From Escherichia phage vB_EcoM_KWBSE43-6: a stretch of 64,000 bases of DNA. Under the pieces are notes generated by a model, which saw only the letters and a list, made by a program, of their open reading frames with translations, was not told the origin of the DNA and made no database searches. This document shows positions 53,919 through 58,532 of the stretch, piece after piece. The stretch lies in sequence record NC_048186.1. One strand, written 5' to 3'. Position 1 is the stretch's first letter. Each line of letters begins with the position of its first letter. Position numbers and translations under genes: made by a program.

Positions 53919-54223
53919 CAGATTTTATAGTCCCTCCAGCCTCATTCCTTCGCGTGAAAAATGAAGTGAAGGAAATCACGGGCTGTACTCACAAAGAATC
54001 TACGACTATCACCATGATGCTGGAAGCAAAAATGTTGGTAGATTCAGAGGATACAAAAGCGGCACTGAATTCTCTGTTGGCTCTTATTATCCGAGCGTAC
54101 CGAATCCCTGCTATTTCAGATGCGGACGATTTGGTTAAACTCCTCAACACTGGAGGGAAAGAATATGATTCCCTCCGCATCTTTATGACCGGTATACAAG
54201 AAGGTGGTTGGTATGAATCTTAA
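53915..54223 (+). CDS. hypothetical protein, 102 aa
   Basis: ATGA overlap with denV stop. Confidence 0.5.
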   Translation: MTDFIVPPASFLRVKNEVKEITGCTHKESTTITMMLEAKMLVDSEDTKAALNSLLALIIRAYRIPAISDADDLVKLLNTGGKEYDSLRIFMTGIQEGGWYES

Positions 54224-54389
54224 TTGGGAATTAATGGGTTGGATCCTTTGCTCCATTTTTGGCGTATTGGGTATTCTGTGGATTATTGTTGGTATCTGGT
54301 TCTATCGGGTTATTACACAATATGAAGCGCGTAAAGCGGAGCGCCAGGTACGCCAGGAAGAAATTCGCAATCGCCGGGAGAACTGGTGA
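54213..54389 (+). CDS. small membrane protein, 58 aa
   Basis: ATG 54213; hydrophobic helix WILCSIFGVLGILWIIVGIWFY then basic tail. Confidence 0.4.
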   Translation: MNLNWELMGWILCSIFGVLGILWIIVGIWFYRVITQYEARKAERQVRQEEIRNRRENW

Positions 54390-54502
54390 TGGAAGAAAAT
54401 ATCTGGCATGTCATCGGCGGCAATCTGTTGGGTATTCTGATCGTCTGGTTCTGTTATTGGTTCGGTGGCAAGCTGGCTAAATTTTTCCACGGACGTGACT
54501 AA
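54389..54502 (+). CDS. small membrane protein, 37 aa
   Basis: ATG overlapping upstream stop; single hydrophobic helix; not in ORF track. Confidence 0.25.
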   Translation: MEENIWHVIGGNLLGILIVWFCYWFGGKLAKFFHGRD

Positions 54503-54534: not shown

Positions 54535-54984
54535 ATGTTCTTGACTTCCTTTATCGACTGGTTGAATATCATCAACGGCCTGAGGATTCCTGTGGGAAAC
54601 CTCGGGCTTTCTCGTTCTTCTATGCCACAAATTGACGCTGATAAACAGCAAGACTTCCATGATTATCTGGAGGCGAATGGCGTGACCATAGATGCATCTC
54701 AAGTCCCGATCCGAACATTGCGGCTGACTCAGAACGAGATCAACAAAATGAAGGTCTGGAAGATCATGAAGCAGATCAGGAACAAGAAGCCGATGGGCCG
54801 GGTTTGGGTATCTTCAGACAATTACGTCGTGGATGGTTCCCATCGGTTTGTGGCCGCTCTGAATATGGACGGCAAGCAACGAATGAAGGTTTACAAAGTA
54901 GATTTGCCTGCCATGGAATTTGTCAAATTAGCTCGAAAATTCAATGGGGTGCGTTATCGTACTGTTTCTGATGCACGTTTCTGA
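54535..54984 (+). CDS. ParB/sulfiredoxin-like nuclease domain protein, 149 aa
   Basis: IRTLRLTQNEI and VVDGSHRFVAA resemble ParB N-terminal domain motifs (DGHHR-type). Confidence 0.5.
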   Translation: MFLTSFIDWLNIINGLRIPVGNLGLSRSSMPQIDADKQQDFHDYLEANGVTIDASQVPIRTLRLTQNEINKMKVWKIMKQIRNKKPMGRVWVSSDNYVVDGSHRFVAALNMDGKQRMKVYKVDLPAMEFVKLARKFNGVRYRTVSDARF

Positions 54985-55005: not shown

Positions 55006-55035
55006 CTTTACTCAATAAACCTTCCGAACTACTAT
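55006..55035 (+). promoter_or_regulatory. early-promoter-like element (-35 CTTTAC, 18 bp, -10 TACTAT)
   Basis: CTTTAC followed by TCAATAAAC; 28 nt upstream of ATG 55063. Confidence 0.35.
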
Positions 55036-55062
55036 TTCCTCAATGAACAAGAGGGAATCACC

Positions 55063-55749
55063 ATGAAACGTTTAATCCTTGGGGTGCTGCTGGCTGGGCT
55101 GGCGCTCCCCGCCGCTGCCAAACTGAACTCTACAGGTGAGAAACTGTGGGGAGATCTTTCTTACTGTGCTGGATGGTCTCAGGCTGTCGCCATAGACAAG
55201 ACTGGTTCTATCGAGAACTTTTCTGAATTGTGGAACACAGGCAACGTATCTGACGCTGTTGTCAACGCCGGAATTGAATTTAATCGATACAAACAAGGAG
55301 CCTATAATCTCAAAGGCTATCTGAATGACGATAAATTCAACAAAGGTGGGATGGATGCCTCAGATTTGATCATGACCGGGCGTATGGGGACGGCAGGGAG
55401 GATTCAGGTTAGACAATGCCGTTCGCTTCCCATCCCGGCGCTTCAGAAAGGTGTCAACATCGGGCGTCGCCATCTTGATCTCATTAATGATGGGAACCAG
55501 TGCGTCAAAGTATTTGAATACAGTGCCGATCAGATCAATGATCCTAAATTAAAGAAAGAATGGCGGACTCGTGCTCTTGGGCTTCGGGCCTGGTTGGTAG
55601 AGAATGACCATTATTACCAGGACAGGGTTGATTCAGGCCTCAAAGATTTATCGACCAACTTGTCTGTAAATCTGGATGACCCAAGACTTTCCCGGGAACT
55701 TCAACAGACACGTATTGATTGTGACAACATGATGAAGGAGAACGAATGA
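55063..55749 (+). CDS. secreted / periplasmic protein, 228 aa
   Basis: Signal peptide MKRLILGVLLAGLALPAAA. Confidence 0.6.
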   Translation: MKRLILGVLLAGLALPAAAKLNSTGEKLWGDLSYCAGWSQAVAIDKTGSIENFSELWNTGNVSDAVVNAGIEFNRYKQGAYNLKGYLNDDKFNKGGMDASDLIMTGRMGTAGRIQVRQCRSLPIPALQKGVNIGRRHLDLINDGNQCVKVFEYSADQINDPKLKKEWRTRALGLRAWLVENDHYYQDRVDSGLKDLSTNLSVNLDDPRLSRELQQTRIDCDNMMKENE

Positions 55750-56093
55750 TGCGTGCGAAAAAGTCGACTATCATTATCGTCTACCTGATTTTGGTCTCTG
55801 TCTTTGGTTTATGGGCAAACCATGCATTGGCGGTCCCGGCCAACAATCTGAACAAATGTGCTGCATGGTTGTCTACTTATCAACAATTTCATCCTGACGA
55901 TAAAGATACTTCCATTTTGCTTTCCGATTTTGAAGGTGAAATGAAACGTTTGGACCAGTACAGTACTGACCAGATTGAGAATGCTCTGGATTTACCGATG
56001 ATGGATTCCGCAGCAGATAACAGTCACCAAACTGCCGTAGACCTGTCATATTGCCGTGAGATTGCGATTAACTTTACCCGTAATCAAAAATAA
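55746..56093 (+). CDS. secreted or membrane-anchored protein, 115 aa
   Basis: ATGA overlap; N-terminal KKSTIIIVYLILVSVFGLWANHALA signal/anchor. Confidence 0.55.
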   Translation: MMRAKKSTIIIVYLILVSVFGLWANHALAVPANNLNKCAAWLSTYQQFHPDDKDTSILLSDFEGEMKRLDQYSTDQIENALDLPMMDSAADNSHQTAVDLSYCREIAINFTRNQK

Positions 56094-56142: not shown

Positions 56143-56883
56143 ATGACCGATAACGAAATTGCCCAGATCATTAAGCAGCATTCCCGTTTTGCTCCGAATG
56201 CTGCTAATGTCATCATAGTACACAAAGACGGACGTGTATTCTTTGCTGAAAAGTTTGAGCAAGGGAGCCAGTTCTGGGATGCGAGCACGATGCTTCCACG
56301 TACCTTACAAGGTATCATCTACTCCTGTTCTCTGGTGGCGAAGCGGAGCGATGCCGGTCATTGGGTTGGCGTTAATGATCTCGGTGGCATTATGGGTGGG
56401 AAAGAATATCCGACCAAACGCTCCCCGCCGCCTTATGTCAAAGAACAGATGTCCAAGATTACCAATCGTCCAAGGCCGACCCCGAAAGAACCGAAAGTCG
56501 AAGTCGTTCCTGCAACGGCGGTAGAAACAAAACCAGCCAAAAAGGATACTGATTGGCGTTCTGGATTTATCGGGGTTAAAGAATTGGATCGCGAACGTAA
56601 TCCTCGCAATCATCCATTGTTCGTGTCAATACGGACTGATGGTAAAATCATCCTGAGCAAAGGTCTTCTGGATAAAATCGATGGTAATTTTGATTTTCTG
56701 GTGTCTAAGGATCGGAAGGTCATTGCCCTGGTGAAAAACGGTTCTATGTATAATATGAACAAATCGGGGAATTACTCTCACAAAGGTCTGCCCAAGTATC
56801 TCAAGTTCCCAGAAGATTCCGGCACAGTTCGAATCTATATGGATTGGGACCAAGAAAAGAACGCATTTATCGGCAGTCTATAA
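56143..56883 (+). CDS. hypothetical protein, 246 aa, two domains joined by Pro/Lys-rich linker
   Basis: ATG 56143 after CCGGAG; internal linker PPPYVKEQMSKITNRPRPTPKEPKVEVVP. Confidence 0.55.
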   Translation: MTDNEIAQIIKQHSRFAPNAANVIIVHKDGRVFFAEKFEQGSQFWDASTMLPRTLQGIIYSCSLVAKRSDAGHWVGVNDLGGIMGGKEYPTKRSPPPYVKEQMSKITNRPRPTPKEPKVEVVPATAVETKPAKKDTDWRSGFIGVKELDRERNPRNHPLFVSIRTDGKIILSKGLLDKIDGNFDFLVSKDRKVIALVKNGSMYNMNKSGNYSHKGLPKYLKFPEDSGTVRIYMDWDQEKNAFIGSL

Positions 56884-56930
56884 TATCGGGGCGGTTATAA
56901 TGACCGCCTCTTTGATTTGAAGGAATTATT

Positions 56931-57641: not shown

Positions 57642-57871
57642 GCATGCTATTTGATGTCTATTTGGTCCATTTCGTTGCCAGTCAATCCCAAACAACTTTC
57701 CTAGTTTTGTTGCCTTCTGGCAAAGGTATGAGCCTTGATGACATATCCACTTTAGAAAATCAATTCTACGAACGTTGTCATGATCTTGGGTATTTGGTTA
57801 ATTTCAATAAATTGACGGACGAGATCACTGCCGAAGAACATGACCAACTCCATCTTTTTTTCCAATTTTGA
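57638..57871 (+). CDS. hypothetical protein, 77 aa
   Basis: ATGA overlap with upstream stop. Confidence 0.45.
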   Translation: MSMLFDVYLVHFVASQSQTTFLVLLPSGKGMSLDDISTLENQFYERCHDLGYLVNFNKLTDEITAEEHDQLHLFFQF

Positions 57872-57894
57872 ATTACAACAGATTAGAGGCAAAC

Positions 57895-58221
57895 ATGAGC
57901 AGCCGTATTTTTGATCTAAAATTCCGCGTTTGGCACGTTCCTCAGGTGCCGGGGAAAATGTTTACAGTTGAAGTCCCGACGTATGCTGAAGCTGAACGTT
58001 TGAAATCGTCGCTGGCTGATTATGATCTGTTCCAGTATGAGAACAACATCAAACCCGATTATTGCAATGCCAGCGGTATTCAGATTTATCAACACGACCT
58101 ATGTGACGCCGAGTTGATCGAAATGGGCCTTGAAGATCGTTGGGTGGATATCGAGGATGACCAAGATCTACAGGATTATCTGGATCATATTCGTTCTACT
58201 GGTTGGGAAATAAAATCATGA
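57895..58221 (+). CDS. hypothetical protein, 108 aa, acidic
   Basis: ATG 57895 after AGAGG. Confidence 0.5.
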   Translation: MSSRIFDLKFRVWHVPQVPGKMFTVEVPTYAEAERLKSSLADYDLFQYENNIKPDYCNASGIQIYQHDLCDAELIEMGLEDRWVDIEDDQDLQDYLDHIRSTGWEIKS

Positions 58222-58532
58222 CCATGATCAGTTCTTATATCGTTCAAAAAGGTGATACCCTTATGGGGATCTGTATGAAATTTTATTCAGATCCCTATAT
58301 GTATTCAGATATAGCGAAGTACAACAATATCATTGATCCGAACAAAATTTGCGTCGGCCAGCTGATTAAATTCCCCCGGCCTGTCAATGACCCACAAACA
58401 GTCGTTATCCCGGTAGAACCCACTCAGAAATGTTTGGATGCTATTGCAGGCTTATTCCAGGAAGGATTTTGTGATGGTCGTATAGAAAGAGATATTTATG
58501 CCGTCATAGTGAGTTCGGCTCTGAACCAATAA
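58218..58532 (+). CDS. LysM domain protein, 104 aa
   Basis: YIVQKGDTLMGICMKFYSDPYMYSDIAKYNNIIDPNKICVGQLIKFP fits LysM consensus. Confidence 0.6.
   Translation: MTMISSYIVQKGDTLMGICMKFYSDPYMYSDIAKYNNIIDPNKICVGQLIKFPRPVNDPQTVVIPVEPTQKCLDAIAGLFQEGFCDGRIERDIYAVIVSSALNQ

Follow-up and report, generated by a model that had tools for sequence, protein, structure and literature searches.

The DNA analyzed here (the window) is a stretch of 64,000 nucleotides from Escherichia phage vB_EcoM_KWBSE43-6 (sequence record NC_048186.1), and the subject of the analysis is a pair of adjacent genes, denoted A and B, that encode two predicted exported proteins (Table 1). Over 3 kb, the window shares 98% identity with PP889490.1, and its identity to Menlow, Magnus and 0507-KN2-1 amounts to 92-96%; by these identities, the phage is a Klebsiella phage, a Vi01-like member of the Ackermannviridae that belongs to Taipeivirus or lies very near this genus. 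The pair is embedded in a long plus-strand block which encodes a clamp loader, a regA-like repressor, MazG, denV, a helicase, RNase H, gp55 and gp46/47, along with a ParB-N-like protein of 149 amino acids (aa), a P22 gp17-like protein and a LysM protein. A preliminary description of the locus had reported two open reading frames (ORFs) sharing an ATGA overlap; both lie exactly where it placed them, the N-terminal sequences it quoted are correct, and each ORF has a Shine-Dalgarno (SD)-like site of its own, that of B being located within the 3' end of gene A. Gene B contains a second in-frame ATG at 55749, and the strand opposite the pair carries no competing ORF longer than 74 aa.

Table 1. Features of the A/B locus (positions in the window; a slash marks a predicted cleavage site)
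Feature	Positions	Strand	Details
Candidate promoter, TCAATA-N12-TACTAT	55012-55035	+	putative pre-late class; 28 bp upstream of the gene A start
SD-like site of gene A, GAGGG	55051-55055	+	7 nt spacer to ATG 55063
Gene A	55063-55749	+	ORF of 228 aa
Predicted signal peptide of A, residues 1-19	55063-55119	+	MKRLILGVLLAGLALPAAA; predicted signal peptidase I site AAA/KLN
Predicted mature protein A plus stop	55120-55749	+	209 aa, ~23.6 kDa, isoelectric point (pI) 6.2
SD-like site of gene B, AAGGAG	55735-55740	+	5 nt spacer to ATG 55746
ATGA start/stop overlap of A and B	55746-55749	+	B ATG 55746-55748; A TGA 55747-55749
Gene B	55746-56093	+	ORF of 115 aa
Predicted signal peptide, or possibly signal anchor, of B, residues 1-29	55746-55832	+	predicted cleavage ALA/VP
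Predicted mature protein B plus stop	55833-56093	+	86 aa, ~9.8 kDa, pI 4.4, predicted all-helical
Hairpin resembling an intrinsic terminator	56888-56910	+	10-bp stem with 6 GC pairs, then a T-run; directly 3' of ORF 56143-56883

Signal peptides were assigned with sequence heuristics, namely the n-h-c layout, the -3/-1 rule and hydropathy (KD19). Protein A starts with the n-region MKR, followed by a 12-residue h-region (LILGVLLAGLAL) and the c-region PAAA, with a Pro at -4, after which the sequence continues with KLN; this signal contains no lipobox. In protein B, the n-region MMRAKK precedes a 17-residue h-core (TIIIVYLILVSVFGLWA) and the c-region NHALA, followed by VP. Neither mature protein contains a further hydrophobic segment (maximum KD19 of 0.42 for A and -0.01 for B). 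A hydrophobic N-terminus is encoded by 5 of the 67 genes in the window, four of these five cluster at 54.2-56.1 kb, and the n-h-c layout is confined to A and B; given this rarity and clustering, and because the layout is conserved in homologs with otherwise unrelated signals, the export-type N-termini of the two proteins exceed chance expectation.

Comparison across the two families points to cleavage of these signals. Distant homologs of A possess unrelated h-regions that still terminate in A-x-A-type ends (SAWS/E, HASA/A, ANA/G, VHA/R), and this suggests that selection has favored cleavage, not a 20-residue anchor. The B family is more diverged than the A family: column identity in B is 0.35-0.41 over residues 1-30, compared with 0.77-0.99 in the mature part, where there are long invariant runs, and the first ~30 residues vary in length as well. 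Among the B family members listed, small residues occupy the -3 and -1 positions (ALA, VLA, VMA, AYA, VHA, AQA, VNA, ARA and others), usually with x-Pro next. A hypervariable N-terminus joined to a conserved mature part is, as far as sequence can tell, what is classically seen where a signal peptide is cleaved. Independently, the LIMEstone1 record annotates a 'putative signal peptide' on both genes and a 'signal peptide and transmembrane domain' for B, and with an h-core of 17 residues in the Taipeivirus clade, protein B of this phage may retain an uncleaved signal anchor. Both proteins thus display the n-h-c layout, the -3/-1 residues, a variable signal followed by a conserved mature part and no further transmembrane domain (TMD), as in the class exported by Sec and processed by signal peptidase I, and are predicted to be exported. 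The N-terminal signal peptides or anchors proposed in the preliminary description are accordingly a family-wide trait.

The predicted mature protein A consists of an N-domain (residues ~20-130), which contains Cys35 and Cys119, and a helical C-domain (~140-228), which contains Cys147 and Cys220. Within the A family, the first two cysteines are invariant, the other two are nearly so, and the motifs SYCAGF/W and GGMxAxDLIMTG are conserved. The AlphaFold2 model of A is poor, with a predicted local distance difference test score (pLDDT) of 40, and only residues 144-190, in the helical C-domain, reach values of 54-81. Protein B belongs to PHROG 3843 (E=7e-53); homologs with 28-70% identity to the window protein share the invariant residues C38, W41, Y45, H49, K67, A89, T96 and C103, and its AlphaFold2 model comprises five helices with a pLDDT of 59. 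The four cysteines of A form one pair per domain, the two cysteines of B are located near each end of the mature chain, and neither protein contains a CxxC motif. With cysteines so widely spaced and in the absence of CxxC, periplasmic disulfides are to be expected rather than metal sites, and the spacing suggests intramolecular staples. Neither paralogy of A and B nor repetition in tandem of a B-like domain within A is established: BLASTP detected no significant similarity, and hhalign comparison of A with B gave probabilities of 12-29%, with matches limited to the signal peptide and a C-x-[AG]-[WFY] motif. A crude heptad score for coiled coils failed to separate either A or B from lambda Rz and was dropped.

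The module is conserved over a considerable evolutionary distance within a narrow range of phages. The order A to B, an overlap of 1-4 bp, the A-x-A sites and the cysteine pairs of the mature proteins are retained in eight divergent lineages, namely six genera (Taipeivirus, Kuttervirus, represented by Mansal, dinky and CBA120, Limestonevirus, Agtrevirus, Miltonvirus, represented by phiMAM1, and Nezavisimistyvirus, represented by Bue1) and two distant metagenomic lineages, in which identity to the window proteins is 33-35% for A and ~28-33% for B. Protein B has a constant architecture, whereas A varies from 126 aa (the N-domain alone) in phiMAM1 and 165 aa in Bue1 to 228-250 aa elsewhere; the gene order and the overlap persist even where A is reduced to the N-domain. 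An exhaustive profile search with the A family yielded 10 matches among 1.84 billion representatives. Homologs of B are confined to Ackermannviridae-type contigs and 280 phage records, the exception being one cluster labeled 'Salmonella enterica' by NCBI. Scans of IMG/VR and JGI metagenomes for the context of the distant A homologs returned nothing, and the context was obtained through exact-protein look-ups. Both genes are part of the published Vi01-like core genome (PMC10892097), and neither protein occurs in the examined portions of the Sajous1 virion mass spectrometry table. On the evidence of these searches, the A and B families are narrow and specific to Ackermannviridae-like phages. In Shigella phage Gloob, gene A (L012 449-1201) is annotated with a 22-codon N-terminal extension starting from TTG (LKPFTQHGEPP...), which probably is a start-codon mis-call, since the signal peptide would otherwise be buried.

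The sequence upstream of gene A belongs to a recurrent class of promoter-like elements. The pattern TCAATA-N11-14-TAnnnT occurs 12 times in the window (positions include 32718, 35397, 42463, 45349, 47034, 49644, 52839, 53391 and 55012) compared with 2.67+-1.5 expected; all copies are on the plus strand, nearly all are intergenic, and they precede the clamp-loader gene, denV and several genes without assigned function but not virion genes. In TCAATA-N12-13-TAnnAT, the two boxes lie too close together for the first to be a sigma-70 -35 element, and the arrangement is reminiscent of T4 middle promoters, in which a box is found near -30. The position of the element upstream of A is conserved in three genera, the Kuttervirus equivalent being TCAACA-N12-TATCAT and that of phiMAM1 a near-perfect TTCAATA-N12-TATGAT. 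A second motif, CTAAATA, looks like a late class: it occurs 13 times compared with 6.5 expected (positions include 863, 4175, 9775, 12680, 23449 and 29452), is absent from 39.6-64 kb, and is located upstream of the tail spikes and fibers, the tail sheath and the scaffold, with the variant CTAAGTA before the major head gene. Two other patterns were tried and set aside: the T4 late promoter (TATAAATA) matched once in the window compared with two expected, and a sigma-70 consensus scan showed no enrichment (15 matches compared with 13.3 expected). According to Kutter et al. 2011, neither the late nor the early/middle signals of ViI-like phages had been identified at that time. Downstream of the pair, the strongest terminator-like hairpin of the region probably ends a transcription unit composed of A, B and the gene for a 246-aa protein. 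From these motifs we infer that synthesis of A and B precedes late transcription or does not depend on it, and the 'early region' of the preliminary description gains indirect support from the promoter class together with the neighboring genes (clamp loader, regA, denV, helicase, gp55 and gp46/47). A literature search found no transcriptomic or functional data on either gene.

Taken together, these observations make it very likely that A and B are an exported, co-made pair of periplasmic proteins, to the extent that export can be predicted from sequence. In the explanation that we favor, they form a conserved two-gene module of the Ackermannviridae that would be transcribed from a pre-late promoter alongside the replication and repair genes, with translation coupled through the ATGA overlap. 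The products would be exported by Sec and, most likely, cut by signal peptidase I, and oxidation in the periplasm would join C38 to C103 by a disulfide in B and, in A, C35 to C119 and C147 to C220. Both would then be soluble in the periplasm, probably as an A:B complex, acting in the envelope before progeny are made; we infer the signal cleavage, the disulfides and the complex from the features of the two chains. The most likely role would be to alter or guard the envelope against events outside the cell. One option is superinfection exclusion directed against the family's own conserved penetration machinery, in the manner in which Spackle blocks the gp5 lysozyme, which is plausible by analogy, and a related option would be the sensing of superinfection to delay lysis. 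The superinfection exclusion or injection blocking suggested in the preliminary description gains no support from the computed results, nor do these speak against it. Such a specific protective or timing role is speculative and rather less likely to be right than wrong; the explanation as a whole, exported pair plus role, is tentative, with a chance somewhat short of even.

Several observations weigh against the favored explanation. An essential role, for instance in lysis, would explain core-gene status as well as an accessory one does, or better; the timing of expression is deduced from promoter motifs only; and cleavage of the long h-region of B in this phage is uncertain. Fold searches with the low-confidence models of A and B retrieved only generic helical bundles, no relatives of either protein were detected in Pfam, NCBIfam, PADLOC or PDB sequence profiles, and neither matched defense or exclusion families. 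Nothing ties A or B to characterized exclusion, lysozyme-inhibitor or antiholin families. Comparison of the A and B profiles with T4 Spackle using hhalign matched only the signal peptide, the PDB profile searches with A and B gave no Spackle match, and the comparison with T4 RI, which covered B, produced a probability of 0.3%, that is, no real match. To our knowledge, exclusion proteins of the Spackle type act singly, and the overlapping two-gene design is more reminiscent of spanins.

Among the alternatives, the one that holds up best, although we regard it as unlikely, is another kind of periplasmic takeover of the host, through inhibition of a conserved host periplasmic enzyme or envelope-stress pathway or through modification of capsule or lipopolysaccharide export; in this case, an uncleaved signal anchor might hold B of this phage at the inner membrane. 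Conservation of A and B across phages of Salmonella, E. coli, Klebsiella, Dickeya, Serratia and Erwinia would fit a conserved target, and the invariant W41, Y45 and H49 of B and the GGMxxxDxxMxG loop of A look, from their sequence, like binding surfaces. The h-core of B in Taipeivirus is of borderline anchor length, and the LIMEstone1 annotation of B as containing both a signal peptide and a transmembrane domain fits the same idea. No positive evidence points to any specific target, however, and both families lack bacterial homologs, given the few matches of the A profile and the phage-type records that make up the B family.

The main competing explanation is the current database annotation, a label that the preliminary description did not mention. 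It makes A and B a two-component spanin, with A as the i-spanin in the inner membrane and B as the o-spanin in the outer membrane; the two would bridge the periplasm and complete lysis by fusing or disrupting the outer membrane. In SpaninDB, the Marshall orthologs of A and B are entered as an i-spanin and o-spanin of the 'separated' class (PMC6139136 supplements). The same two names are used in the CPT record of Mansal and in several other Kuttervirus records, PHROG 3843 carries the unvalidated label 'Rz-like spanin', UniRef uses 'I-spanin', and RefSeq and several GenBank records do likewise. 'Rz-like spanin', an i-spanin name, sits on the gene that SpaninDB treats as the o-spanin. The order of the genes and the 1-4 bp overlap match those of separated spanins, a feature that is not specific to spanins; periplasmic cysteines are present in both proteins, and both genes are core to the family. 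One clade of B, of the Marshall/Agtrevirus type, bears a lipobox (IAGC/MAGC). There is also no competing candidate, in that lipobox scans of the window and of the rest of the closest genome recovered only a DUF7292 lipoprotein. This protein of 116 aa (L013 23133-23483, minus strand, corresponding to PP889490.1 120133-120483; lipobox LSAC) is encoded in the part of the genome outside the window, where no other lipoprotein was convincing; its gene overlaps the downstream NT5C-like gene by 4 bp, and because it lacks a C-terminal TMD, it is not a u-spanin.

The case against the spanin label begins with membrane attachment. An o-spanin is expected to have a signal peptide that ends in a lipobox, [LVI][ASTVI][GAS]C, and so to be an outer-membrane lipoprotein, but protein B of this phage has no Cys before C38, and its signal ends NHALA/VP. 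A lipobox is present in 7 of 40 B clusters, which comprise one Kuttervirus/Agtrevirus-type clade and one other sequence, and is missing from the remaining 33; counted by phages, it is found in one of the nine sampled from six genera and in neither of the two distant lineages. Even the annotated 'o-spanin' of Salmonella phage Mansal (L003 3124-3444, MRNIIFLLFFSMLASFQVVATP...) has none. Approximately 39 of the 280 phage records reach 90% identity to the lipobox-type B, and some of those differ at the N-terminus. Because the mature domain of B is strongly conserved with or without a lipobox, the shared function of B cannot depend on lipid anchoring. An i-spanin would keep its N-terminal TMD as a type II anchor in the inner membrane. 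For A, the sequence heuristics speak against this, since its N-terminus combines the short 12-residue h-region with PAAA/K, and A-x-A-type ends are kept in distant homologs; the Marshall 'i-spanin' is recorded in SpaninDB as having no coiled coil and an outlying periplasmic domain of 206 residues, next to an o-spanin of 108 aa (PMC6139136 supplements). The C-terminal domain of A is dispensable in Miltonvirus and Bue1, the promoter is of the pre-late rather than the late class, neither protein matches a Pfam spanin family, and the literature search found no experimental report on spanin function of either protein. The CPT found that spanins were not reliably identifiable in Menlow and Mutine. 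Judged from the sequences, the spanin annotation is not supported for this phage, with B failing as an o-spanin and A doubtful as an i-spanin, and we consider it improbable that the pair acts in this way. The label was seeded by the single lipobox-bearing clade in SpaninDB and spread through PHROGs/pharokka and RefSeq to hundreds of genomes in which the proteins do not have the anchors that define spanins.

A distinctly less probable alternative places A, B or both in the periplasmic arm of lysis inhibition, as an RI-like antiholin or as a sensor of superinfection, which would bind a holin on its periplasmic side and delay lysis when other phages attack the infected cell. T4 RI is likewise small, helical and periplasmic, the pre-late promoter-like element upstream of A would suit this timing, and homologs of rIIA and rIIB are present. 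Phage CBA120 displays T4-like lysis inhibition at high multiplicity of infection (PMC3184105), no holin or antiholin has been identified in the Ackermannviridae (PMC3184105; PMC6486244), and two genes for small single-TMD proteins lie just upstream of A and B in Taipeivirus (54204-54502). These membrane genes, however, are not at the locus in the Kuttervirus records examined, whereas A and B are; B shows no sequence similarity to RI, the uncleaved signal-anchor-release domain of RI differs from the classical A-x-A signals of A and B, and no holin partner is known. Equally improbable is a reading in which A and B work together in the periplasm without anchors and carry out, or control, lysis at its envelope step, in a family with no recognizable holin, antiholin or spanin. 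They would do so either as a soluble outer-membrane-disrupting complex in place of spanins or as the superinfection sensor of the family's lysis inhibition, with the lipobox of the one clade then an optional add-on.

The annotation of several neighboring genes deserves comment. The two tiny genes upstream of the ParB-like gene and of the A/B pair (54204-54389 and 54386-54502) overlap each other and encode single-TMD proteins, the first of 61 aa and ending in a tail that is highly charged, the second of 38 aa, which belong to PHROG 14464 ('membrane protein') and PHROG 23957; both are present in Taipeivirus and missing from this locus in the examined Kuttervirus records, and their shape is holin- or antiholin-like, in a family with no identified holin. 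The 149-aa product of 54535-54984 is labeled 'cytidyltransferase' by pharokka and matches part of a large ParB-like PHROG, and its counterpart in LIMEstone1 is a 'confirmed structural protein', so the annotations conflict. Sajous1 virions contained a protein with a ParB N-terminal domain, identified by 11 spectra, and the 54535-54984 product may be a virion-packaged ParB/nuclease-like protein. The 246-aa protein encoded 3' of B (56143-56883) is called an 'RNA polymerase sigma factor' in PP889490.1, a label that looks unsupported: Pfam and NCBIfam give no match, and its PHROG family has no assigned function. Further downstream, the P22 gp17-like gene (57868-58221) is labeled 'superinfection exclusion' (PHROG 1510) and has no signal peptide, and the gene labeled 'endolysin' (58203-58532) encodes only a LysM-domain protein of 109 aa; the genuine muramidase endolysin is located elsewhere (PP889490.1 55566-56360).

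Genes A and B have been cataloged before; what is contested here is the existing 'spanin' label of two genes that are among the few envelope-directed core products of the family. Phages of the Ackermannviridae are widely used candidates for therapy and biocontrol, and their lysis and exclusion machinery is largely undefined despite the observed lysis inhibition. As one of the few conserved envelope-targeted core products, the A/B pair offers a natural entry point to this biology. If it is a true Spackle-like exclusion factor, it would matter for the design of phage cocktails from this family, and if it is an unanchored component of lysis, it would represent a new way of breaching the outer membrane.

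Several known types of phage envelope proteins share features with A and B. Like the two-component spanins (lambda Rz/Rz1 and T4 PseT.3/PseT.2), they are encoded by adjacent overlapping genes, the larger one first, with both products targeted to the envelope and periplasmic cysteines in both partners, and the genes are located away from the endolysin gene, as in T4; in contrast to spanins, the proteins of this phage and most of its relatives are predicted to lack both membrane tethers. The exclusion lipoproteins T5 Llp, which is made early, and phi80/N15 Cor may resemble only the lipobox-bearing clade of B, which would be a small phage lipoprotein, and they differ from B of the window, which is not a lipoprotein. 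T4 RI is a small helical periplasmic protein expressed before lysis, and thus shares with A and B the status of a small secreted phage protein of the periplasm; it differs in the signal-anchor-release domain and in having two adjacent cysteines, whereas A and B have classical A-x-A signals, and no T-type holin is known in the Ackermannviridae. T4 Spackle (gp61.3) is an acidic, all-helical periplasmic protein that is made early and mediates superinfection exclusion by blocking the tail lysozyme gp5. When the sequences are compared directly, Spackle and B are alike in their small size, a signal peptide of the cleavable type and a Cys toward either end of the mature protein. The element upstream of the pair is of the putative pre-late class, and a gp5-like hub/lysozyme gene is present in the closest genome at PP889490.1 62693-64303. 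Lysis inhibition occurs in the family of A and B too, and the family also has a baseplate-hub lysozyme (PMC3184105). By analogy rather than as evidence, the comparison with Spackle and RI suggests that suitable periplasmic targets and processes for A and B exist in this family.

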